Of a stretch of DNA of 64,000 nt, positions 3,849 to 45,525 are shown piece by piece. The notes beneath the pieces are model-generated. The model made no database searches, was not told where the DNA came from, and saw only the letters and a list, made by a program, of their open reading frames with translations. Positions within the stretch are counted from its first letter, which is position 1, and every line of letters starts with the position of its first letter. Origin of the DNA: an uncultured Myxococcales bacterium (lineage in GTDB: Bacteria > Myxococcota > B64-G9); NCBI GenBank assembly GCA_964633205.1, contig CAZWFN010000001.1:114219-178218 (forward strand). Direction: 5' to 3'. Made by a program: the position numbers and the translations under genes.

Positions 3849-6800
3849 ATGGGCGTGGGGTCCGAGGAACAGCCTGGACAACCGCGGCCGTTGCGGGTGA
3901 CCGGGACGGCCGCCGCGCGTTACCGGTTGCGCGATCGGCGAACCGCCCGGCCGACCGAACGGGCCGCGGCGGCCGAGATCGGCCGCGGCGGCATCGGCCG
4001 GGTGCTGCTGGCCTTCGACGAGGACCTGGGCCGCGAGGTGGCGCTGAAGGAGCTGTTGCCCGGGTCCCGGGCCGTGGGCGCGGGAGCGGATGGGGCGGCC
4101 ACCGCGTCCGGAGCGGATCGCACCGCCGACGCCGCGGCCCGCTTCCTGCGCGAGGCGCGGGTGACCGGCCAGCTGGAGCATCCCAACATCGTGCCGGTCT
4201 ACGAGCTGGGCTGCAACGCCGGCGGCAACCTGTACTACACCATGAAGATGGTCCGCGGCCGCACCCTGGCCGAAGCCCTGGCCGACCGCCGCCGCCTCGA
4301 CGATCGGCTGCGCCTGCTGGGCCACTTCGTCGACCTGTGCCAGGCCATCGCCTACGCCCACTCCCGCGGGGTCATCCACCGCGACATCAAGCCCGAGAAC
4401 GTCATGCTGGGCGAGTTCGGTGAGACGGTGGTGCTCGACTGGGGCCTGGCCAAGGCGCGCGGCGCCGAGGACATCCGCGGCTCGAAGATGGAGCGCGAGA
4501 TCCAGCTGCTGCAGGATGCGGCCAGCGGCCACACCGTCGACGGCACCGCCATCGGCACGCCGGCCTACATGAGCCCGGAGCAGGCCGAGGGCCGCCTGGA
4601 CGCCATCGACGAGCGCTCCGACGTCTGGAGCCTGGGCGCGGTGCTCCACCAGATCCTGACCGGCCGGCCGCCCTACACCGGAGCCAACGCCTACGAGGTG
4701 CTCAAGCGCGCCCTGAGCCAGCCGGTGCCGCCGCTGACCGAGACCTGTCCGGAGGCCCCGCTCGAGCTGGCCGCCGTCTGCCGGCGGGCCCTGCAACGCG
4801 ACCCCGACCGCCGCTACCAGTCGGCGCAGGAGCTGGCCACTGAGATCGATGCCTACCTGACCGGAGGTCGGGTGCGGGCCTACACCTACTCGCTCGGTGA
4901 CATGCTGCGCCGCGCCTATGCCCGCCACCGGATGGCCTTCGTCACCGGCGCCATCGCGCTGGTGCTGCTGCTGGCGCTCGGCGTCTGGTCCTACCTGCGC
5001 CTGGTGGCCGACCGCGATCGGGCCAACCAGCTGCGCGCCGCGGCCGACGCGGCCCGCACGGCCGCCCGGCTGCGGCTGGCCGACGCCCACCTGGAGGGCG
5101 CCCGTGCCGCCCGCCTGCGCCGCGATCTGCTCGAGTCGCGGGCCAAGCTGCGCTCGGCGCTGGAGGTCGGCGACTCGGCCGCCGCCCGCTTGTTGTGGGG
5201 CCAGCTGCAGACCGATCCGCTGATCTGGCGCCGCCGGCTGGGGGCCATCGTCTACGACGTGGCCTTCGCCCCCAGCGGCCGCGAGGTGGCCGCGGCCGGC
5301 CACGACGGCTCGATCTGCTTGATCGACGCGCACACCGCCCAGCTGCGGGTGCTGCGCGGCCACCGGCCCTGGGTGGCCAGCCTGGACTACGCCCCCGACG
5401 GCCGGCGCCTGGCCTCGGCCGGTTCCGACCAGCAGGTGCGCATCTGGCGGGTGGCCGACGGCCGGTTGCTGCACGAGCTGGCCGGCCACCGGGCCGCCAT
5501 CCACGACGTGGCCTTCCACCCCGGCGGCCGCCTGCTGGCCAGCTGCGCCCAGGACCGCAGCCTGCGGCTGTGGGATGCCCGCAACGGCGAGCTGCTGCAG
5601 ACCGTGACCGAACCGGCGGTGATCCACTGGGTGCTGGCCTTCACCCCGGACGGCGAGCGGCTGTGGGCCGGCGGCCGCGACGGCAAGCTGCGCGGCTACC
5701 GGGTGACCAAAGACCGCTTGACCGACCCGATCGCGCTAGCGCAACCGACCGGCGGGGCGGCGGCGCTGGCCATCGACCCCGCCGGCCGGCGCCTGGCCAG
5801 CGGCGGCAACAGCAACATCGTCTACCTCTGGGATCTGACCACCCTCGGCCCCGGCGCAGCACCGCTGCGCGCGCTGGCCGGACACCGAGACGGCATCGCC
5901 GAGCTGGCCTTTCACCCGCGACAACCGCGCCTGGTCTCGGCCAGCTACGACCACAGCGCCCGCATCTGGAACCTGGAATCCCCGGATGCGGCACCGGCGG
6001 TACTGCGCCAGCACGAAGAATGGATGGCCGGGGTGGCATTCGCTCCGGACGGCACGGCCCTGGCCACCGGCGCCGAGGATCGCCTGGTGGCCCTGTGGCG
6101 TTTGCCTCTGGACCAAGCGCACCGATCCGTCCGGCGCGGCCATGGAGACGTGGTCACCGAGCTGGCGGTCGCCCCCGACAGCCGGCTGCTGGCCAGCGGC
6201 AGCGCCGACCAGAGCGTGCGGCTGTGGGATCTGGCCGGCGGCCGCCAGCTGGCGGTGCTCGAGGGCCACGGCGACGACGTCCAGGGTCTCGGCTTCGCCG
6301 CCGACGGCACGCTGCGCTCGGCCGACTGGACCGGCCAAGTCTACCGCTGGCAGCGCACCGACGACCAGACCTGGCGCGGCGAGCCGCGGCGGCTGGCCGG
6401 TGACGCCGACCCCAACACCAGCGTGGAGTTCGGCCCCCAAGGCCGCTGGGCGGCGGCGGCCGACTACGATCGCAGCATCCGCCTGTGGGACCTGCGCAGC
6501 GGACGCGAGCGCAAGCTCGTCGGCCACGGTGATCTGATCCGGGAGCTGGACTTCGGCCCGGCCGGGCGGTTGTTGGCCAGCGCATCCTGGGACGGCAGCG
6601 TGCGCCTGTGGCGAACCGACAGCGGACGCTGCCAGGCGGTACTCGAGGGCCACCAGGGCCAGGTCAACAACGCCGTCATCGCCGACGACGGCCGCCGGCT
6701 CTACTCCACGGGTTGGGATCGGACGATCCGCCGCTGGGACCTGAAAGGCGCCAGCGGCCGGGTGGTCCACCGCGGCGACGCGCGCTACGAGACGCTGGCC

Positions 6801-35922: not shown

Positions 35923-37332
35923 ATGAAAAAAGACGACTCCCGCGGAACCGGGCTCGACCGCCGGTCCTTCCTGCGCACCGGCGGCGCAGCCCTGGCCGCC
36001 TCGGTGGCCGCCGGCTGCGCCACCGCCACCAGCACCAAAAGCGGCGCCGAACGCGCCCCGGCGCCGGCCGCCGGCGCTGCCGATCGTGCGGCCGAGGCGA
36101 CGGGCCCGCGGGTGCGCGTCCAGCGCCGGCTCGGCCGCACCGGCTTCGAGGTCTCCGACGTGGTCATGGGCTGCGGCTCGATCGCCGAGCCCAACGTGGT
36201 ACGCTACGCCTGCGACCGCGGGGTCAATCTGCTGGACACCGCCGAGGGCTACGAAAACGGCCGCAGCGAGGAAAAGATCGGCCAGGCCATGCCGCACCTC
36301 GAGCGCAAGAGCCTCTTCCTGGTCACCAAGCTCAAGCGCCGGCAGGAAGACACCGAGCAGAGCCTGCTGCAGCGCTTCGCCCGCTGTCTGGAGCGGCTGC
36401 GCACCGACTACGTCGACGCGCTGTACATGCACGCGGTCTCTGACGTGGCCAGCGTCTCGGACGCCACCTTCCACCGGGTGGCGGCGCGGCTCAAGGCCGA
36501 TGGCAAGATCAAGCATCTGGGCATCTCCAGCCATGGCCCGCGCGGAGATACCGGCGACAGCCTGGAAGACGTGCTGCTGGCCGCCGTCGAGGACGGCCGC
36601 TTCGACGTCATGATGTTGGTCTACAGCTTCCTCAAGCCCGAGGCCGGAGCGCGGGTGCTGCGGGCCTGTCGCGAACGCGACGTGGGCGGCATCGCCATGA
36701 AGGTGACCGCCGGGGTGATGCAGGTCGAGCCCTTCGACCCCGAGGCGCCGGCCGGCGAGTACGCCCATGTGCTGGAAAAGCTGCTCAAACGCGGCAAGAC
36801 ACGGGCCGAGGCCATCGATCGCATCCAGCGTTGGGTGGCCGATATGCGGGCGGCCGTGGAGCCCACCCGGCCGTTCATCGAAAAGCACGGCATCAGCAGC
36901 GAGCAGGAGCTGCACCGCTCCAGCATCCGCTGGGTGCTGGCCAACCCGGATGCCGCCGCGGCCTGCGTCTCGATGCGCGACTTCGATGCGGTCAACGCCG
37001 CCCTGGCGGCCAGCGGCGATCCCCTCACCGCCCGCAGCCGCCGCACGCTCGACGCCTGGGCCCGCGCCAGCCGCGCCAGCGCTTGTCCGCCCGGCTGCAC
37101 CGAGTGCGTCGCCGCCTGTCCGCACGAGGTGCCGGTCAACACCATCCACCGCTACGCCTACTACTTCCAGCAACGCCGGCAGCAAAAGCTCGCCATGCAC
37201 AAGTACGCCAGCCTGGGCCACGGCGCCGAGGCTTGCTTCGACTGCTCCGCTCCCTGCCGCGGGGCCTGTCCCGGCGGCCTGCCCATCCAGGCCAGCCTGG
37301 TCCACGCCCACCAGCTGCTGACGCTGGCGTGA
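35923..37332 (+). CDS. aldo/keto reductase with Tat signal and C-terminal Fe-S cluster domain (COG1453-like)
   Basis: Twin-arginine motif DRRSFLRTGGAALAA, an AKR core, and a C-terminal CPPGCTECVAACP...CFDCSAPCRGACPGG region. Confidence 0.8.
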   Translation: MKKDDSRGTGLDRRSFLRTGGAALAASVAAGCATATSTKSGAERAPAPAAGAADRAAEATGPRVRVQRRLGRTGFEVSDVVMGCGSIAEPNVVRYACDRGVNLLDTAEGYENGRSEEKIGQAMPHLERKSLFLVTKLKRRQEDTEQSLLQRFARCLERLRTDYVDALYMHAVSDVASVSDATFHRVAARLKADGKIKHLGISSHGPRGDTGDSLEDVLLAAVEDGRFDVMMLVYSFLKPEAGARVLRACRERDVGGIAMKVTAGVMQVEPFDPEAPAGEYAHVLEKLLKRGKTRAEAIDRIQRWVADMRAAVEPTRPFIEKHGISSEQELHRSSIRWVLANPDAAAACVSMRDFDAVNAALAASGDPLTARSRRTLDAWARASRASACPPGCTECVAACPHEVPVNTIHRYAYYFQQRRQQKLAMHKYASLGHGAEACFDCSAPCRGACPGGLPIQASLVHAHQLLTLA

Positions 37333-37342
37333 GGCACGGCCG

Positions 37343-38194
37343 ATGATTCGTTCGGGAATGCTGTTGCTGGGTCTGCTGCTGACGTCGCCGGCCGTGGCTG
37401 CCGATTTCGTGGAGCTGCCGGGCTGTACGGGCGAAGCGGGCGAGACCTTCGACCGCCGGGGGCTGTTCAAGGCGATCAACGGCGCGGCCGACGTCTTCCT
37501 TGAGTACGGCTTCGAGCGCCTCGATCTCAGGCGCTACGACTGCGGCGCGGTGACCATCGAAGTGAGCAGCTACGACCAGGGCACCCCGCTCAACGCCTTT
37601 GGTGTGTTCGCCCGCGAGCGGCCGGCGGCAGCCCGGGCCGTTGCCGGCGGCCCGGGCCTGGTCGCGCCGCCGCGCCAGTGCCTGCTGCGCCAGGGCCGTC
37701 ACTACGTCAAGATCGGGGCGATGCGCGGCGCGCTCGACGCCGCTGCCTGCAAGCCCTGGCTGCTCGCGCTGGCCGAGGCGCTGCCGGGCTCCAGCGATCT
37801 ACCCAAAGCCTTCGCGGCCCTGCCAGCCGCGGATCGGCTGGCCGGCAGCGCGGGCTACACCCCGGAGTCCTACCTCGGCCTGTCGGAGTTGGGTCCCTGC
37901 GTCCATGCCCGTTATCAACGCGGCGGCCGGCAGATCGAGATCTTCCGCCTGCTGCCCGGCTCGGGCCGCGCGCTTGACAGCAGGTGGCAACGGCTGACCG
38001 AACGCTGGCAGCCGGCTGCCGGCAAACCGCCGCTGCTGCTGCGCGAGGTGCCGTACCGCGGCATCGCCGGCGTCGTGCGCACCCCGCAGGCGGTGCTCGG
38101 CACGATCGGCGCCGGCGACCGAGAAGCCACCATCGAACTGCTGCGCAGCTTGGCCGAACAGCAGGCGGGATCCGCCGCCGGGGCCTCGAACTGA
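37343..38194 (+). CDS. hypothetical secreted protein
   Basis: Signal peptide MLLLGLLLTSPAVAA. No recognisable motif. Confidence 0.45.
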   Translation: MIRSGMLLLGLLLTSPAVAADFVELPGCTGEAGETFDRRGLFKAINGAADVFLEYGFERLDLRRYDCGAVTIEVSSYDQGTPLNAFGVFARERPAAARAVAGGPGLVAPPRQCLLRQGRHYVKIGAMRGALDAAACKPWLLALAEALPGSSDLPKAFAALPAADRLAGSAGYTPESYLGLSELGPCVHARYQRGGRQIEIFRLLPGSGRALDSRWQRLTERWQPAAGKPPLLLREVPYRGIAGVVRTPQAVLGTIGAGDREATIELLRSLAEQQAGSAAGASN

Positions 38195-38243
38195 GTCTGC
38201 GATTTCCCAGCGGGCTGGCCGACCGGCAGCGGTGGAGTCGAGG

Positions 38244-40552
38244 TTAGAAACGCCGGTCGATGATGGTGGTCTCACCCGGTTGGATGCGGACCTCGATCAG
38301 CTCATCGATGCCGTCCGCCTTGCGCACCAAGCGCAGGTGATGGGTGCCGGCCGGCAGGCGTTTGCCGACCAAGGGCGTGCGGCCCAGCCGCTTGCCACCG
38401 AGCAAGACCGTCATCGGCCGCCCCGTGGTCAGCTGCAATTTTCCCCGGCCCCGGCGCCGGCGCTTGTCGGCGCTGGCGGCTGCCTCGATCTTCTGCGGAT
38501 AGAACTCGAGCTCCAGGCGCTCCTCGGCCGACAGCCACACCCGCTGGCGATCCGGCTGATGACCGGAGCAGCGGACCGTGACCTCGAACTCCCGGTTGGC
38601 CGGCAGGATCACGCTGGCCAGCGGCGTTCGGCCGGCCAGTTCCATGCCCGCCAGCTCGACCGCACAGCCGGTAGGCTCGCTGCGAACGGCCAGCTGGGCC
38701 AGCGGCGGCGGAACCGCCAGCGGCCGTGGCTGCAGCCCGGCGGTGGCGGCCGTTGCGGCCTCGTCGAGTTCGGGCTCCGGCTCCGGCTCGGCAGCCGGCT
38801 CGACCGCAGCCGGCTGCACCGGCTCGTCGTCACCCGACGGCCAGACCAGGGCGATGATCAGCAGCAGCAGCACAGCCCCGACGGCCGTGGCCGGCCAATG
38901 CAGGTGGGGCGGTAACCAAGGAGTCGGCGGAGCCGCTGCAGCGCCGGTGGGCTGGGCCGATTCGGACCGCTCGGACACGTTCGCAGCGCCGTCCTCGGCC
39001 ACGGCCAGCTTGACCCGAAATCCCTCCGCTGGACCACCGTCCCCCGCAGCATCAGCCGCTCCCGCCAGGGCTCCGGACGGCGGATCGCCGTCCGTCCCGG
39101 CCGCGGCCGGCCCCGCCTGATCTGCGCCCGCTGCCGCGACCGCCCCCGCGGTCGGCGCCCGGTCATCGACCTTGCGGGCCGCAGCCACTTTCTCGGCACC
39201 CAGATCCTCGAGCGTCGGCGGCATGGTCTCGAACGCCCCGGCCGCTGTTGCCGGCTCGTCCGGCATCCCGGATGCCGCTGGTCGCTCGGGTTGCGCGCGC
39301 TGTTCGGGCTGGTCGGGTTGCCGGGCCTCCTCGGCCGGGGTCTCTGCCGGCGGCACTGAAATCTCCGGCGGCGACACATCCGGCAAGGGATCGTCGCCGG
39401 CTGCGTCGACCGGGCCCGCATTCGCGGCTGTCTCGGCTTCGGCCCGCTCGGCCGCCGCTGGCAGAGGCGGTGGTTGCGGCGGCGGCGCGGCTTCCGGCTC
39501 GGCTTCCGGTTCGGCTTCCGGTTCGGCCGCCGGTTCGGCCGCCGTTCCGGCCGACCGGTCGGGCAGCAGCAATTCCGCGACGTCGCCTTCCAACTCGCCG
39601 GCGGCCGCCCGCTCCAATGCCTCGGCCTTGGCCTGCAAACGGTCCGCCAGGTGCTGCTCGAGCAACGTCGCCACGGTGGCCGGTCCGACCTCCCCATCCA
39701 ACCCGCGGCCCACCTCGGCCAGGGCCGACTCCAAGGCGGCGGCCGAGTCCGGTCGTGCGGCCGGATCGCGGGCCAGGCAACGCCGCAGCAGCGGCTCCAG
39801 GGCGTCAGGGTTTTCGGCGCCGGCGGGCAGCGGTGGCACGTCGCCGGCCAGGATGGCCTTGCGCGTGGCCAGATCGTCACCGCGGTCGAACAGGGATCGA
39901 CCGGCCGCCATTTGCCACAGCACGCTGCCGAGCGAAAACAGATCCGAGGCGGGCCCGGTCTGCTCGCCCAGGCATTGCTCCGGCGACAAATGGGCGGTCA
40001 AGCGGCTCGGGTGGGGACGCTCGGCCGGCCGCTGCAGGTCGAAGTTGATCACCTTGACCACGCCATCGGGCTGCAGGACCAGATTGCGCGGGTTGACGTT
40101 GCGATGGACCAGATGCAGCGGCTCGCCGGTCTTGTCCTTCAGCTGGTGGACGAAAGCCAGCCCTGCCGCAGCTTGCCGGCCCACCGCGATGATCACCGGA
40201 GCCGGCAGCGCGGTGCCGATCGGCCAGCGGCCGAGCAGCAGCCCCAGGCCGTCACCGTCCAGAAACTCGGATACGGTGAACACACCCGCCCTGGACTTGC
40301 CGGCCTCGATGACCCGCGTCAGGTTGGCCTGGGTCAGCCGGACCCCGATGCGGGCTTCGTCGAGAAAACGCCCCACAGCCGCTTCGTCGCGGGCCAGATG
40401 GGCCAACAGCTCGCGGATGACGACGAAACGACCACGGCCGGACTGGCCGGCCACCAGCCCCAGCGAGACCGCGGACAACCCGCTGCGGGTCAGCGGCAAC
40501 AGGATCTGGTACTCGCCCTTGCGCCCCTTGAGCCTGCGCCTCGCTCTTGCCA
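38244..40552 (-). CDS. transmembrane Ser/Thr-kinase-like protein, predicted pseudokinase, with C-terminal PEGA domains
   Basis: Kinase fold with catalytic residues substituted: VAIK to VVIRE, HRD to HRNVNPRN, DFG to NFD. A Pro/Ala/Glu-rich linker, one TM helix and two PEGA-like domains follow. The track ORF upstream of ATG 40552 is antisense noise. Confidence 0.7.
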
Positions 40553-40609
40553 TGGTTTTCCGATCGTAGCCGCTGACTGCCGGCGAAAGCAATGGGCTTG
40601 TCCGCCTCG

Positions 40610-41419
40610 TCAGCCGGAGCGGACTCCGTTCTTGACTCCGAGGATGGCGAACCGCTGCGCCACTCCGGCGGAAAAGGCGAACAGGCACGCCAGGCTGCGA
40701 AACGTCTCGCTGACCGCGGTGACCAACCACGGCGAGGCATCGACCAGGGGCAAAACGGCCAAAGTGCCGTCGAAGAAGAGCCAGGCGATCGAGCTGATGG
40801 TCAGCAGGGCCCAGGGCCAGCCCAGCAGACCCCCGCGCAGCGCCAGGGCGGTCAGCAACAATGGGGCGATCAGCACCAGGATGACCAGATCGCCCAGGCC
40901 GGAGGCGATCCACACCAGTGCCTCGCCCTCGCCGGCGAGCAGCCGTTGGAAGTTGACCACCACCGCCGACCCGGCCGAAGCCAACGACAGCACTACGGCG
41001 GCGGCCAGCACGGCGTGCTGGGCCCAGCGCGGACCGGGCAGCTCGAGCCCGGCCACCTTCCAGGCCCGGGCCAGCATCCAGGTGCCCACCACGGCCGAGG
41101 CATTGGCCAGCAGGGTGGCCCCACCGCGGGCCGCCCCGCGCCAGGCGACGCCCTCGGGCACCGCCAAGCCGAACACCGCGTCGCGCGCCAAGAGCAACAG
41201 CATGGCGGCGCCGTAGAACAGCCAGGCACGGCGCAGATACTCGCCGCGGGAAAAGGCGAATGCCGCCAGGACGGCGCCCACCACGGGCATGGCCTTGGCC
41301 AGCTCCATCTCGGCCCGCATGAAGGTACCGAAAGCGGGCTCCCCGGCCAACGCCAACATGCCCCCCACCAACGCGGCCGCCCAGAGCAGCGGCACCACCA
41401 CCAACACCCGGAACCTCAA
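40610..41419 (-). CDS. integral membrane protein (about 7 TM helices)
   Basis: Hydrophobic periodicity throughout. The start overlaps the stop of the small upstream ORF (ATGA). Confidence 0.55.
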   Translation of the reverse strand: MRFRVLVVVPLLWAAALVGGMLALAGEPAFGTFMRAEMELAKAMPVVGAVLAAFAFSRGEYLRRAWLFYGAAMLLLLARDAVFGLAVPEGVAWRGAARGGATLLANASAVVGTWMLARAWKVAGLELPGPRWAQHAVLAAAVVLSLASAGSAVVVNFQRLLAGEGEALVWIASGLGDLVILVLIAPLLLTALALRGGLLGWPWALLTISSIAWLFFDGTLAVLPLVDASPWLVTAVSETFRSLACLFAFSAGVAQRFAILGVKNGVRSG

Positions 41420-41646
41420 CCCAACACCTCCTCGCGGAGGGAGCGCAGCAAGGCATCTGTCGAATCGGCGCCCACCAGGGTACGCAGCATCGGTCGCAAG
41501 GCCTCGAGCAACGCGGGCGCGTCAGCGGTGGTCACCTGCTCGGGCGCCTTGCCCAGCGCCTTGCGGGCGAAGGTCTGGACCGCCACGCGGGCGGTGTTCG
41601 GCCCCAGGTAGGTACTCAACCGTTCGACGATCTGATCGGCGACACG
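41416..41646 (-). CDS. small hypothetical protein
   Basis: About 77 aa, starting MRVADQIVERL. Stop coupled to the membrane protein gene. Confidence 0.35.
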   Translation of the reverse strand, partial: RVADQIVERLSTYLGPNTARVAVQTFARKALGKAPEQVTTADAPALLEALRPMLRTLVGADSTDALLRSLREEVLG

Positions 41647-42059
41647 CATTCTCTTCTCGACCACTTCACCCGCAGCCGCGGCCCGGTTCTCTCCACCCCG
41701 TTCAGCGCCGGTACAGCACCCGATAAGCCGCCTCGGCGCCAAACCAGGCGACCAGGCGTTCCAGCCGACCCATCGACGCACCGGTTCCCATCAGAAAAGG
41801 GTACGGCAAGGCCTTCCTCCCGCTTGGCTTCGGCTCCAGCATAGAGCTTCGAACCCCGCGGGTCAACGCGCCCCGACTGATTTCCCAACGCGACCGCGAC
41901 CATTGCCGCTTGCGCTCGCAGCGCCAGCGGGCGACTATACCATTACTTCGCAGAAACTGCTTCGATAGCGTATACAGCTCTGGTGGAATGGTACTGCTCT
42001 TGGCTTTGTTTGCGGCGGTAGCAGCGCTGTGACTGTTCGGTCCAGGTGAGGAGAATGCG

Positions 42060-42779
42060 TTGATGGACGTCCAGCGATTCGATTTCGAGCCCGGCACGGT
42101 TCTCAACCGCAAGTACGAAGTGCTCGGCTTCCTGGGCGACGGTTGGGAAGGCGAGGTCTACAAGCTGCGCGAAAGGGCCACCGGCATCCGCCGGGCGGGC
42201 AAGTTCTTCTTCCCGCGCCGCAATCCCCGCAACCGCACCCTGCGCGCCTACGCCAAGAAGCTCCACGCGCTGCGCCATTGCCACGCCCTGATTCAGTACT
42301 ACACCCAGGAGAGCATGCAGTTCCACGGGCGGCGCATCGACTACCTGGTCTCCGAGTACGTCGAGGGCGAGAGCCTGTCGAGCTTCGTCGGCCGCCAACC
42401 GGGCCGCCGGCTGCACCCCTACCAGGCCTTGCACCTGCTGCACGCCCTGAGCAGCGGTGTGGCCGAGATGCACAACCTGCGCCACTCGCACGGCGATCTG
42501 CACACCGACAATATCATCGTGCGCCGCTACGGGCTACGCTTCGAGCTCAAGCTGTTCGATTTCTTCCAGTGGGAGATGTCGACCCAGGATCTGATCCAGG
42601 AGGACGTCTACGACCTGATCCGGATCTTCTACGACGTGCTCGGCGGCAAGCGCACCTACGCCCGGCAGTCACCGACGGTCAAAAACATCTGTCGGGGCCT
42701 GAAGCGCAGCTTGATCCGCCAGCAGTTCCGCACCGCCGGTCAGTTGCGCCAGCACATCGAGACCCTGGAGTGGGAGTGA
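42060..42779 (+). CDS. small atypical protein kinase (Bud32/RIO/Kdo-kinase-like fold)
   Basis: Gly-rich loop GFLGDGWEGEVYKL, AxK (RAGKFFF), catalytic loop HSHGDLHTDNIIV, and DFF in place of DFG. Only 239 aa. GC is lower than the flanks. Confidence 0.65.
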   Translation: MMDVQRFDFEPGTVLNRKYEVLGFLGDGWEGEVYKLRERATGIRRAGKFFFPRRNPRNRTLRAYAKKLHALRHCHALIQYYTQESMQFHGRRIDYLVSEYVEGESLSSFVGRQPGRRLHPYQALHLLHALSSGVAEMHNLRHSHGDLHTDNIIVRRYGLRFELKLFDFFQWEMSTQDLIQEDVYDLIRIFYDVLGGKRTYARQSPTVKNICRGLKRSLIRQQFRTAGQLRQHIETLEWE

Positions 42780-42784
42780 AGCCC

Positions 42785-43627
42785 ATGACCGACGAGATGC
42801 TGGCGACCGGACGCGACCACTTCGCCCCGCAGGCGGCGCGTCTGGCCGGGGGAACCGCGCTGGCCTATACGGCCCGCGATCCGACCGCCGATAGGCCCAA
42901 CGAGGATGCCCTGGCCCTGCTGCCGCTCGACGACGAACGGGCCGTCATCGCCCTGGCCGACGGCGCCGGTGGAGAGCCGGGCGGCGCCGAGGCGGCGGCC
43001 CTGACGCTGCGCACCTTGCAGCAGAGCCTGCGACAAGCGCGGGCCCAGCCGCCGGCCGAGGGGCTGCGCGCGGCGATCCTGGATGCCATCGAGGCCGCCA
43101 ACCGCCAGTTGCTCAACACCCTGCCGGGTGCGTTGACCACGCTGGAGGTGGTCGAGATCGGCGCCTGGCACGTCCGCTCGTATCACATCGGCGATTCGGG
43201 GACGCTGTTGATGGGCGGGCGCGGCCGAGTCAAGTACCGCACCATCTCCCACTCCCCGGTGGGATACGCGATCGAGGCGGGGCTGGTCGAGGCTGGCGAA
43301 GCGCTGTTCCACGAGGACCTGCACCTGGTCAGCAACCTGCTCGGCACCCGCGAGATGCACATCGACATCGGCCCGCGCCTGCGGCTGTCGCCGCGTGATA
43401 CCCTGCTGGTGGCCAGCGATGGATTGGGCGACAACCTGTTGCCGCGCGAGCTGACCGAGCTGTCCCGCAAGAGTCCGTTGGAACGGGTGCGCGACCGGCT
43501 GGCCGCGCTGGGCCGCCGGCGCATGCTGGAGCCGACCGCCGGCACGCCGTCCAAACCGGACGACCTGAGCTTTGTCCTGTTCCGGCCGGACCCGGCCCGG
43601 GGGCCGGGGGCGGAAGGACGGGGGTGA
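42785..43627 (+). CDS. PP2C-family Ser/Thr protein phosphatase
   Basis: PP2C metal-binding motifs NEDA, ADGAGG, HSPVGY and ASDGLGD. Starts 5 nt after the kinase stop. Confidence 0.8.
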   Translation: MTDEMLATGRDHFAPQAARLAGGTALAYTARDPTADRPNEDALALLPLDDERAVIALADGAGGEPGGAEAAALTLRTLQQSLRQARAQPPAEGLRAAILDAIEAANRQLLNTLPGALTTLEVVEIGAWHVRSYHIGDSGTLLMGGRGRVKYRTISHSPVGYAIEAGLVEAGEALFHEDLHLVSNLLGTREMHIDIGPRLRLSPRDTLLVASDGLGDNLLPRELTELSRKSPLERVRDRLAALGRRRMLEPTAGTPSKPDDLSFVLFRPDPARGPGAEGRG

Positions 43628-43631
43628 GTCC

Positions 43632-44048
43632 ATGGGTGAATTCGAGATGCTGGAGCACGCCGCCGACGCCCGGGTCCGCTTGCGCGGCGACAGCCTCGAG
43701 GACGTCTTCGCCACGGCGGCCCGGGCCCTGGTCTGGTTGATGGTCGGAGACAGCCAGCTCGAGCGCAGCCGGTCGCGCAGCCTGGAGCTGGCGGCCGACA
43801 GCCCCACCCAGCTGCTGGTCGACTGGCTCGACGAGCTGATCTTCTTGTTCGAGACCGAAGCCTGGCTGGTGGCCGAGGCCGAGTTGGACATCCAGCCCGG
43901 CTGGCGCTTGCGGGCGGTGATCCGGGGCCAGCCCCACGACGCCCGGCGCCAGCCCATCGAGACCGTGGTCAAGGCGACCACCCACCACCGCCTGAGACTG
44001 GAACGCCGGGATTCGGGCTGGGAGGCCGAAGTCGTGTTCGACCTGTGA
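43632..44048 (+). CDS. archease (RtcB activator)
   Basis: MLEHAADARVRL N-terminal archease motif; length about 138 aa. Starts 4 nt after the PP2C stop. Confidence 0.8.
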   Translation: MGEFEMLEHAADARVRLRGDSLEDVFATAARALVWLMVGDSQLERSRSRSLELAADSPTQLLVDWLDELIFLFETEAWLVAEAELDIQPGWRLRAVIRGQPHDARRQPIETVVKATTHHRLRLERRDSGWEAEVVFDL

Positions 44049-44064
44049 GCCGAGGGGGACCACC

Positions 44065-45525
44065 ATGCAGAACCGAAAGCGGAAGCTGATCCTGGAGCGT
44101 CTGGACGACTGGCGCTGGCGCATCCCGCGGCGTGGCCCCATGCGCTCCGATGGTCTGATCTTCGCCGACGAGACCCTGGCGCGCACCGCCGGCCGGGACG
44201 GCACGCTGCAGCAGGTGGCCGATGTGGCCAGCCTGCCGGGCATCGTCGGTCCGGCCATGGCCATGCCCGACTTCCACCAGGGCTACGGCTTCCCCATCGG
44301 CGGGGTGGCCGCCTTCGACGCCGAGGGCGAGGGCATCGTCTCACCAGGCGGCGTCGGCTACGACATCAACTGCGGGGTGCGCTTGCTGCGCACCCGACTG
44401 GACCGCGACGAGATGGAAGCCCACCTCGACACCTTGATGGTGGCGCTGCTCGGGCACATCCCGGCCGGCGTCGGTTCGCGGCGACCGGACCTGAAGCTCG
44501 CCGAGCGCGATCTCGACCGGGTGCTGGCGGAAGGGGTCGATTGGGCGGTGGGTCGCGGCCTGGCCGGTCGCGCCGATACCGACCGGGTGGAATCGGGCGG
44601 CTGCATCGCCGGAGCCGATCCCGACCGGGTCAGCGGCCGGGCGAAGCAGCGCGGCCACAACCAGCTCGGCACCCTGGGCTCGGGCAACCATTTCGTCGAG
44701 ATCGATGCGGTGACCACCGTATACGACGCCCAGGCGGCCGATGCGCTGGGGCTGGCGCCCGAAGGGGTGGCCGCGCTGATCCACACCGGCTCGCGTGGCC
44801 TGGGCCACCAGGTCTGCTCCGATGCCATCAGGCAAATGGCGCGGGCGGCCGGCCGCTACGGCATCCGCTTGCCCGACCGACAGCTGTGCTGCGCCCCGCT
44901 GGATTCGGATGAGGGCCGCGGCTACCTGGCCGCCATGGCCGCCGCGGCCAACTACGCCTTCGCCAACCGGGCGGTCATCAGCCACTGGCTGGGCCTGGCC
45001 CTGGAGCAGGTGTTCGGTCGATCGGCCGGCGAGATCGGTCTCGGTCTGGTCTACGACGTGACCCACAACATGGCCAAGCTCGAGACCCATCAGGTCGAGG
45101 GCCGCCGACGGCGGCTGTGCGTCCACCGCAAAGGGGCCACGCGGGCTTTCGCCCCGGGACACCCGGAGCTGCCGGCCGCTGTCCGGCCGCTGGGACAACC
45201 GGTGCTCATCCCGGGGGACATGGGCCGCTGCTCCTATGTCCTGCTGGGCACCGAAGGCGCGATGCGCGAGACCTTCGGCTCGTGCTGCCACGGCGCCGGC
45301 CGGGAGCTCAGCCGCAAGCAGGCCCGGCTGCAAGCCCGGGGCCGATCCATCGCCGGCGAGTTGCTCCAGCGCGGCATCCACGTCCAGGGCGCCAGCCGGC
45401 GGACGCTGGACGAGGAGCTCAGCGAGGCATACAAGGACGTCGACCGGGTGGTCGACGTGGTCTGTGGGGCCGGCCTGGCGCGCCGGGTGGCTCGGCTCGA
45501 GCCGCTGGGCGTGGTCAAGGGCTGA
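44065..45525 (+). CDS. rtcB: RNA-splicing ligase RtcB
   Basis: RtcB active-site motifs DFHQGYGFPIGG, GYDINCG, GSGNHF, HTGSRGLGHQ and CCHGAGR. A GAGGGGGAC RBS precedes the ATG. Confidence 0.9.
   Translation: MQNRKRKLILERLDDWRWRIPRRGPMRSDGLIFADETLARTAGRDGTLQQVADVASLPGIVGPAMAMPDFHQGYGFPIGGVAAFDAEGEGIVSPGGVGYDINCGVRLLRTRLDRDEMEAHLDTLMVALLGHIPAGVGSRRPDLKLAERDLDRVLAEGVDWAVGRGLAGRADTDRVESGGCIAGADPDRVSGRAKQRGHNQLGTLGSGNHFVEIDAVTTVYDAQAADALGLAPEGVAALIHTGSRGLGHQVCSDAIRQMARAAGRYGIRLPDRQLCCAPLDSDEGRGYLAAMAAAANYAFANRAVISHWLGLALEQVFGRSAGEIGLGLVYDVTHNMAKLETHQVEGRRRRLCVHRKGATRAFAPGHPELPAAVRPLGQPVLIPGDMGRCSYVLLGTEGAMRETFGSCCHGAGRELSRKQARLQARGRSIAGELLQRGIHVQGASRRTLDEELSEAYKDVDRVVDVVCGAGLARRVARLEPLGVVKG

Follow-up and report, generated by a model that had tools for sequence, protein, structure and literature searches.

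Within a 64,000-nucleotide stretch of DNA from an uncultured Myxococcales bacterium (assembly GCA_964633205.1, contig CAZWFN010000001.1, positions 114,219 to 178,218; the whole of it is referred to here as the window), the gene at 38244..40553 on the minus strand encodes a protein of 769 amino acids which is proposed, with a probability of about 0.6, to be a bitopic, receptor-like pseudokinase of the inner membrane in a Myxococcota lineage, taking part in signalling without catalysis as a scaffold, a substrate or a modulator. A competent Ser/Thr kinase has all of the lysine of strand beta3 (beta3 Lys), the aspartate of the His-Arg-Asp motif (HRD Asp) and the aspartate of the Asp-Phe-Gly motif (DFG Asp). 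This study revealed that all three are substituted in the window protein and that orthologues at 78% and 39% identity carry the same substitutions.

Degradation of the catalytic site

In the HMMER alignment to the PknA and PknB structures, the beta3 Lys is replaced by Arg47 (gRfVViReL, with VVIRE opposite VAVKV of gRrVAVKvL), the HRD Asp by Asn152 (lVHRNVNPRNLvl opposite lVHRDVKPGNIli, HRN being residues 150-152), and the DFG Asp and Gly by Asn170 and Asp172 (VKVINFDL opposite VKITDFGI, NFD being residues 170-172). The catalytic-loop Asn157 is retained according to the same alignment, as is the APE motif, which reads SPE; Glu66 of helix alphaC is also present in the window protein. An independent mapping onto a PknB sequence gave the same correspondence (K40 to 47, E59 to 66, D138 to 152 and D156 to 170). 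The substitutions at VVIRE, HRNVNPRN and NFD had been claimed in an earlier note made from the letters of this DNA, and all three are borne out by the alignment to PknA and PknB.

Other parts of the active site have changed to different degrees. The activation segment consists of only 17 residues and reads RPAERPHPSRLTA, whilst the glycine-rich loop is mildly altered (RSGLSAV vs GGMAEV). The position of the lysine in HRDxK is occupied by serine in 57/66 active sister kinases (see below), so that Asn154 at this position is not a meaningful loss. As the lysine that anchors ATP, the aspartate that acts as catalytic base and the aspartate that binds metal are replaced and the activation segment is shortened, the kinase domain is presumably incapable of ordinary phosphotransfer.

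Gene boundaries, domain architecture and predicted structure

The open reading frame (ORF) begins with an ATG at 40553 and ends with a stop codon at 38244-38246; the earlier note had delimited the right gene, but placed its end at 40552, one base short of the start codon. A longer ORF at 38244-41456 (1070 amino acids) was rejected, as its first 300 codons are off-frame, rich in Arg and Gly and overlap the upstream gene for a seven-transmembrane (7-TM) protein. Its start is also excluded by the orthologues, all of which begin at the MARARR/M-NERRR position that matches 40553.

Pfam recognises a Pkinase domain at residues 39-275 (PF00069, 56.9 bits vs a gathering cut-off of 31.7) and PEGA in two C-terminal stretches (PF08308, 40.9-46.9 bits vs a cut-off of 20.8). 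The cytoplasmic pseudokinase domain, delimited by the PknA/PknB alignment, AlphaFold2 and Foldseek, corresponds to residues 1-300 (39654..40553, minus strand). It is followed by a cytoplasmic juxtamembrane linker, recognised by composition and motifs, over residues 301-553 (38895..39653, minus strand), of which residues ~321-550 carry a net charge of -31 and are rich in Ala (27%), Pro (17%) and Glu (11%); the linker is probably disordered. It is also the fastest-evolving part of the protein, showing 69% identity to the orthologue in a closely related Myxococcales metagenome-assembled genome (MAG), locus L003, compared with 90% for the domains.

The sole strong hydropathy peak (mean Kyte-Doolittle value 2.28 over 19 residues at 553-556) marks a single transmembrane helix, PATAVGAVLLLLIIALVW, at residues ~554-571 (38841..38894, minus strand), the position of which is kept across the family alignments. 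The helix leads into the acidic stretch PSGDDE and then to two PEGA domains, which were placed by AlphaFold2 and Pfam. PEGA-1 lies at residues 618-684 (38502..38702, minus strand) and bears the cysteine pair C630/C662, and PEGA-2 at residues 703-767 (38253..38447, minus strand), where Pfam scores PEGA highest over 714-744. The likely topology would place the N-terminus in the cytoplasm and the C-terminus in the periplasm; a single transmembrane helix, the acidic flank on its C-terminal side and the cysteine pair in PEGA-1 all fit this location of the C-terminus.

The AlphaFold2 model of residues 1-300, built from a 76-sequence alignment, is a complete bilobal kinase, with a predicted local distance difference test (pLDDT) score of 93.6 and a predicted template-modelling score (pTM) of 0.92. 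Its best matches in the PDB are PknB and PknA of M. tuberculosis (Foldseek, E-value 5e-19, template-modelling (TM) scores 0.69-0.87), which agrees with the view that the kinase fold is intact. Residues 590-769 were modelled (pLDDT 91) as two beta-sandwiches, 618-684 and 703-767, with pLDDT values of ~98 for PEGA-1 and ~97 for PEGA-2. In Foldseek the PEGA model matches transthyretin-like carboxypeptidase regulatory domains. A further match, with a target-normalised TM-score of 0.67, is a chain ~77 residues long from 9k1u, the complex of RtkS and PpkA, which may belong to either protein.

The description of the protein as a transmembrane pseudokinase with an acidic Pro/Ala/Glu linker, one membrane helix and two periplasmic PEGA domains therefore stands, with composition, hydropathy, Pfam and AlphaFold2 in agreement on the architecture and the alignment and the orthologues on the three substitutions.

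Orthologues, selection and the inactive clade

A word-indexed search returned only one full-length orthologue, the metagenomic protein P0001 (39% identity, 99% coverage), the next matches being canonical kinases; its motifs read FVVFRELL, VVHRNINLRN and VNFD. A genome scan found the orthologue in L003 (10001-12361, 78% identity), in which the motifs are identical to those of the window protein and the gene order matches that of the window. In Nei-Gojobori estimates against L003, the ratio of nonsynonymous to synonymous substitution rates (dN/dS) was lowest in the PEGA region (0.16), followed by the kinase domain (0.24) and the linker (0.30). The pseudokinase is under purifying selection.

An exhaustive profile search covering 1.84 billion representatives extended the family. 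P0091, P0092, P0093, P0095 and P0096 rank directly after P0001, apart from the canonical kinase P0094, with P0136 and P0145 lower and canonical kinases from P0094 onward. All eight of these proteins (P0001, P0091-93, P0095, P0096, P0136 and P0145) have degraded motifs, with R, K or H at the beta3 position, HRN, HKN, HGN, HHN or HRA at the HRD site and NFD, DFD, GFD, GFE or NFV at the DFG site. The combination R/HxN/NFD is kept in L003, P0001, P0091-93 and L016. The last of these came from a metagenome scan with the family patterns HxNxNxRN and VNFD, which added only L016 (P0091-like) and L017, where the P0092 protein has its true N-terminus; the remaining 13 loci were ordinary kinases.

Some observations concern individual members. 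The database entry for P0092 (540 amino acids) starts too late, as the contig (L009 7857-9698, also L017) encodes MSRRKLQGQKGKYQLL, the N-terminal sequence typical of the family, upstream in frame. Both P0091 and P0092 terminate after the first PEGA domain; at P0092 the tblastn match of the window protein extends ~120 nt further than the annotated stop, which may point to what is left of a second PEGA domain. P0001 (R/HRN/NFD) and P0095 (R/HHN/DFD) co-occur in samples ERZ24794656 and ERZ24794666 on separate contigs (L001/L002 and L005/L006), and could be paralogues of one genome or come from two organisms.

The 11 degraded sequences are monophyletic among 77 kinase domains in a neighbour-joining (NJ) tree, with bootstrap support of 198/200, which is 178/200 once the columns of the glycine-rich loop, Lys, HRD and DFG are dropped. 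They were compared with the 66 active sisters position by position. At the beta3 Lys (47), Arg is found in 9/11 clade members vs Lys in 65/66 active sisters; at the HRD Asp (152), Asn in 10/11 vs Asp in 64/66; at the DFG Asp (170), Asn in 8/11 vs Asp in 65/66; and at the DFG Gly (172), Asp in 9/11 and Glu in 1/11 vs Gly in 65/66. Two further positions are relaxed in the clade: the alphaC Glu (66) is present in 7/11 vs 66/66, and the catalytic-loop Asn (157) in 8/11 vs 65/66. The activation segment is 17 residues long in 8/11 clade members and 18-20 residues in 3/11, compared with a median of 23 in the active sisters, which makes it six residues shorter. No member of the clade (n=11) was found to have the canonical Lys, Asp and DFG; orthologues of that kind had been named in the earlier note as what would speak against it.

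The clade is also marked by motifs of its own. An N-terminal RRxLKGRxGxY and, after the kinase domain, LLPDxS (~329-334 in the window protein) are conserved throughout, whilst the longer members share the linker motifs PPTLED (445-450 in the window protein) and V(K/R)LAV (514-518); these linker motifs are conserved between orthologues that are only 39% identical. RPxxRPHPSRLTA-Y/H-L/M-SPEQC is common to the activation segments of the NFD subgroup. The end of the transmembrane helix, VWPSG(D), is conserved in the clade, and the cysteine pair of PEGA-1 (C630/C662) is invariant in one of the family alignments and occurs in all family sequences that extend as far as PEGA-1.

In the family alignment, which comprises a window fragment with inactive and active relatives, 28 of the 32 rows match PEGA. 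According to the tree and the alignments, the clade is descended from an active family with kinase, transmembrane, PEGA and PEGA segments by one ancient inactivation and has been maintained since. Because the clade is monophyletic, its substitutions are conserved and selection is purifying, a single old inactivation is indicated instead of an error or a fresh pseudogene.

Neighbouring genes

Upstream of the pseudokinase gene, on the same strand, lie a gene for a multi-transmembrane protein of 269 amino acids (40610..41419; ~7 transmembrane segments by hydropathy, the 7-TM protein mentioned above) and a small ORF of 77 amino acids (41416..41649), neither of which belongs to a Pfam or NCBIfam family. 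The two overlap at TTGA, with the TTG start of the 7-TM gene (41419-41417) on the TGA stop of the small ORF (41418-41416), and a gap of 56 nt separates the 7-TM gene from the pseudokinase gene. The earlier note was thus right in placing both genes upstream, whereas the ATGA couplings by which it joined all three genes were not found. Homologues of the 7-TM protein make up more than 190 clusters. In L011/12, L013 and L014/15 they are preceded, with a 4-nt overlap, by a homologous ORF of 77-87 amino acids, and this two-gene module recurs in Polyangia and Gemmatimonadaceae MAGs (L011 5771-6804; L013 4690-6822, a tandem duplicate; L014 4079-5157). The genes that follow it in L011-L015 are unrelated (OsmC, an acyl-CoA dehydrogenase and a TMEM260-like protein), with no kinase downstream. 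At the P0001 locus (L001/L002) the module was not found, and no homology was found between the 181-amino-acid gene upstream of P0001 and the window 7-TM protein. Co-location of the module with the pseudokinase is therefore not conserved across divergent genomes; judged by gene order, the small ORF and the 7-TM gene are an independent two-gene module outside the conserved neighbourhood of the pseudokinase family.

The divergent intergenic region upstream of the small ORF (41650-42059, 410 nt) includes the remnant of a class III nucleotide cyclase gene (41702..41773, minus strand), in which 23 codons encode MGRLERLVAWFGAEAAYRVLYRR, the two ends of a gene that has lost ~520 bp internally. Intact standalone cyclases are found in L003 (8258-8851, plus strand, 197 amino acids) and L001 (5266-5895, plus strand, 209 amino acids), which are 71% identical to each other. 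The deletion is in-frame, with the junction GGCGCCGA standing where L003 has two 11-nt direct repeats, CCCGGCGCCGA, and this suggests a loss by repeat-mediated deletion or by assembly collapse. Upstream of the remnant, the small ORF, the 7-TM gene and the pseudokinase gene lies a candidate sigma-70-like promoter, TTGACC-17-TATGCT (41838..41866, minus strand), the only site in a consensus scan with 0.3 expected; both hexamers are conserved in L003, and the site may function as a promoter.

The region had been described in the earlier note as low in GC and as containing inverted repeats. Its GC content is 62%, vs 70% in the window, and the repeat TACCATT/AATGGTA does exist (41938-41944 and 41987-41993), but it is not conserved, and ten inverted pairs of 7-15 nt, this one included, occur within 500 nt. 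As an operator it was rejected, being a 7-nt chance match in a stretch that is absent from L003. No Rfam match indicating a structured RNA was obtained over 37000-44000 at E<=0.1.

Beyond this region, on the plus strand, are four genes assigned by Pfam: a short Pkinase (42060-42779, 46.8 bits, 239 amino acids), PP2C (42776-43627), archease (43572-44048) and RtcB (44065-45525), with ZnuABC next. The short kinase has an HGD catalytic loop and DFF in place of DFG. Its label in the earlier note, Bud32-like, was not upheld, as it scored 24.7 bits with TIGR03724 against a cut-off of 125 and 16-24 bits with the other Bud32 models against cut-offs of 188-447; the cut-offs of the RIO models were not reached either. 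Its family (~240 amino acids) comprises more than 1400 clusters at E<=1e-10, with ~60% identity across phyla, and occurs in Gammaproteobacteria, Planctomycetota, Acidobacteriota, Patescibacteria and others. Such conservation across phyla suggests a housekeeping role. L003 retains the short kinase, PP2C and archease at 93-97% identity, and its RtcB is reduced to a fragment of ~50 amino acids at 5863-6044, between the homologues of ZnuA and archease. Barring a misassembled MAG, archease, the kinase and PP2C would appear to persist there without the ligase.

Downstream of the pseudokinase gene, and convergent with it across a gap of 49 nt, is a plus-strand gene for a DUF6599 protein (37343..38194; assigned by Pfam, its translation showing a Sec signal peptide). 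It is preceded by 10 nt by a gene for a protein combining an aldo-keto reductase (AKR) with a 4Fe-4S dicluster domain (35923..37332, plus strand; Pfam), which bears the twin-arginine leader RRSFLR. The AKR-Fer4/DUF6599 pair is convergent with the pseudokinase in the window, L003 and L001/L002, with identities to the L001 copies of 60% for AKR-Fer4 and 47% for DUF6599, and is a probable periplasmic redox pair from its leader sequences and domains. None of the pseudokinase, the 7-TM protein, the small ORF, DUF6599 and the short kinase reaches the cut-off of any NCBIfam model.

Proposed role and alternative explanations

If the protein does act as a receptor-like pseudokinase, the two periplasmic PEGA beta-sandwiches would bind a component of the envelope or a periplasmic partner, and the signal would cross the single transmembrane helix through changes in oligomerisation. 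Inside the cell, the inactive kinase domain and the conserved linker motifs could offer an active kinase, or another cytoplasmic effector, a surface for docking or allosteric control; alternatively, they may be a substrate phosphorylated by active kinases. A scaffold or allosteric role would be in line with the known pseudokinases discussed below.

Several observations weigh against this proposal. The inactive state is itself judged from sequence, the clade rests on 11 sequences only, mostly metagenomic, and the neighbourhoods differ among family members. The contacts of the PknB back-to-back dimer, which we take to be R10, L33 and D76 (in line with the PDB titles of L33D/E mutants), were mapped by offset from Tyr15 and Arg47. 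At the equated positions the active sisters have R/K in 48/66, F in 46/66 and D/E in 62/66, whereas in the inactive clade position 14 is never basic, position 40 varies and position 83 is Glu. These changes argue against a simple PknB-style dimerisation of the N-lobes with an active paralogue; if the protein does pair with one, an unchanged PknB-type interface is probably not used. In addition, Asn157 is mostly kept in the clade (8/11) and an acidic residue stands two positions after the start of DFG in 10/11 of its members, compared with 1/66 of the active sisters, so that residual binding of nucleotide or metal, or even atypical activity, may be possible.

The last point bears on whether the domain is inactive at all. 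Arg47, Asn157 and Asp172 might support a weak or cation-independent phosphotransfer, or another nucleotide-dependent reaction as in SelO or SidJ, and pseudokinases with new chemistries have been documented (PMC12599244). The conserved Asn157, the acidic residue and the only mildly altered glycine-rich loop would be in keeping with this, but the activation segment is truncated, the catalytic base is missing and the site has drifted within the clade, with R/K/H at 47, N/A at 152, N/G/D at 170, N/C/A at 157 and E/Q/K/G at the alphaC Glu. Such drift speaks against a conserved alternative catalytic constellation, and atypical activity is considered rather unlikely. That the gene was recently inactivated, or that its substitutions are artefacts of sequencing or assembly, is scarcely credible. 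The window probably derives from a metagenome-assembled genome and the neighbouring cyclase carries a deletion, both of which would favour it; the pseudokinase ORF, however, is intact over 2310 nt, its three substitutions recur in independent assemblies at both levels of identity given above, the dN/dS values of the two folded regions are far lower than 1 and the clade is deep as well as monophyletic. The comparison with orthologues refutes this reading.

Other alternatives would give the pseudokinase particular partners. In the model of the earlier note, it would serve as scaffold in a signalling unit that includes the short kinase and PP2C and, through them, RNA repair by archease and RtcB. 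An active kinase/phosphatase pair beside an inactive kinase is plausible in principle, and the genes are adjacent and divergent in both the window and L003. L003, however, is a near relative, in which the neighbours are 85-97% identical, and its adjacency, the only further case seen, therefore carries no independent information. A functional association should recur, and it does not: no short kinase, PP2C, archease or RtcB was detected (tblastn E<1e-6) in the available flanks of the six more distant family loci (L001/L002, L005/L006, L007, L008, L009/L010/L017 and L016), among which L005/L006 and L016 have a short flank on one side because of a nearby contig end. The ubiquitous short kinase was in turn found alone in two of three sampled loci and with PP2C in one, and with RtcB or a PEGA pseudokinase in none. 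Moreover, a cyclase gene (L003) or its remnant (window), the small ORF and the 7-TM gene intervene between the pseudokinase and the cluster, and RtcB is nearly gone from L003 whilst the pseudokinase is intact. The unit is accordingly not supported, a physical interaction with the neighbouring kinase or phosphatase is conceivable but favoured by none of the comparisons, and the model as a whole appears very unlikely.

Alternatively, the pseudokinase could be connected with signalling by nucleotide second messengers, or with a redox module in the periplasm, instead of a kinase cascade, modulating a class III cyclase or GGDEF enzyme, or sensing the AKR-Fer4/DUF6599 pair through its PEGA domains. 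The window and P0001 lineages do share the convergent AKR-Fer4/DUF6599 pair and the upstream cyclase, although their pseudokinases are only 39% identical, and in L003 as in L001 the standalone cyclase is found upstream of the pseudokinase on its strand. Elsewhere in the family, the P0091 gene is followed after 2 nt by a gene combining a receiver domain with GGDEF, P0092 is preceded by a lone receiver, and a PilZ gene is located near P0001 in L001, whilst other members have no telling neighbour; a precedent for periplasmic control exists in RtkS-PpkA (PMC6082577). On the other hand, the cyclase is internally deleted in the window whilst the pseudokinase is still under purifying selection, the genes separating the two differ between lineages (in L001 one of them is on the opposite strand), neither DUF6599 nor AKR occurs at the other family loci, and convergent genes are not co-transcribed. 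Chance adjacency is likely, because Myxococcota genomes are dense in such signalling genes, and a link of this kind is regarded as unlikely. A more specific version is something of a long shot: in a hitherto undescribed, Myxococcota-restricted clade of receptor pseudokinases, the exported DUF6599 protein, encoded with the AKR/4Fe-4S protein exported by twin-arginine translocation, would regulate the PEGA ectodomain, and the inactive kinase would control the neighbouring standalone class III cyclase or a GGDEF enzyme rather than a phosphorylation cascade. The DUF6599-PEGA interaction in it is pure conjecture; if the version were true, it would describe a relay from periplasmic redox state to cyclic nucleotides built on a kinase fold.

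Comparison with known systems

No bacterial kinomes are larger than those of Myxococcota, in which roughly one kinase in ten is predicted to be inactive. Bacterial pseudokinases are numerous, but to our knowledge almost none has been given a function. According to PMC6791715, which cites Perez et al. (2008), 11 of the 99 Ser/Thr protein kinases of M. xanthus are pseudokinases, several of them developmentally regulated, and on that account pseudokinases are an expected fraction of myxobacterial kinomes. The M. xanthus proteins share with the window protein a phylum-level setting and the Hanks fold without at least one catalytic residue. The likeness is at the level of the class; the nearest database relatives of the window pseudokinase are metagenomic proteins.

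Bacterial transmembrane pseudokinases described so far include EssB/YukC, a scaffold of the type VIIb secretion system, the pseudokinase domain of MviN/MurJ (ActPs3), ActPs2 and GLW, and a non-catalytic scaffold role has been shown or proposed for EssB/YukC and MviN (PMC12599244). These proteins resemble the window protein in the Hanks fold, three degraded motifs, a short activation loop and a C-terminal membrane anchor. They differ from it in belonging to Firmicutes or Actinobacteria and in the replacements themselves, which are VALT, LSIDHPSR and Y-- in MviN and LDMR, YTFVLAPD and TRG in EssB (PMC12599244); moreover, unlike EssB and MviN, the pseudokinase locus has no type VII secretion or MurJ context. 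ActPs3 is actinobacterial with VALT and LSIDHP, beta3 of GLW is marked by poly-Leu/Trp, CP1 is a fusion with COG3899 that lacks a transmembrane segment, and DLHK lacks one as well (PMC12599244). On these published descriptions, the window protein, with its transmembrane helix and PEGA domains, its VVIR/HRN/NFD motifs and its Myxococcales origin, is set apart from ActPs1-3/GLW, CP1, DYD and DLHK, and the clade with PEGA and R/HxN/NFD appears to be absent from the families named in that review, in which the terms 'PEGA' and 'Myxococc' do not occur. A literature search pairing 'PEGA' with 'pseudokinase' found nothing relevant, and no paper combining RtcB, archease and PP2C was found.

Regulation of a transmembrane Hanks kinase by a periplasmic protein through a small periplasmic domain is known from PpkA-RtkS in the threonine phosphorylation pathway of the Serratia type VI secretion system (PMC6082577). 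RtkS is a signal-peptide protein encoded near PpkA, and its analogue in the window would be DUF6599, although this is conjecture only. PpkA differs in being an active kinase encoded in a type VI secretion cluster with Fha and PppA, whereas no type VI secretion genes are present at the pseudokinase locus.

Among eukaryotic pseudokinases, HER3, the JH2 domain of JAK and KSR are single-pass receptors or multidomain proteins, have HRN or HGN loops or a beta3 Arg and act by allosteric pairing with active paralogues. The analogy is functional only, as homology does not go further than membership of the kinase superfamily. ATP is still bound by HER3 and JAK JH2, in which DFG or Lys is intact, in contrast to the window protein, which has lost all three sites.

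The analysis defines a deep clade under purifying selection that originated from active receptors with kinase, transmembrane and PEGA segments, and gives it a signature: R/HxN/NFD, a 17-residue activation segment with RPxxRPHPSRLTA, LLPDxS, PPTLED and the PEGA-1 cysteine pair. This signature offers defined residues for mutation, and the neighbouring genes offer a short list of candidate partners. The tempting link between the pseudokinase and RNA repair by RtcB has been removed as unsupported. The finding alone overturns nothing and opens no long-standing question.

The closest known counterparts are active Hanks kinases of the myxobacterial type, such as P0094 and P0098-P0117, which have the same fold and the same order of kinase, linker, single transmembrane helix and one or two PEGA domains. 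P0094 and P0098-P0105 show ~31-37% identity to the window protein over the kinase domain, and active kinases form the immediate sister groups of the inactive clade in the NJ tree. They differ from it in the canonical Lys, HRD and DFG (64-66 of 66), in an activation segment six residues longer and in the equated dimer contacts, which most of them have kept.

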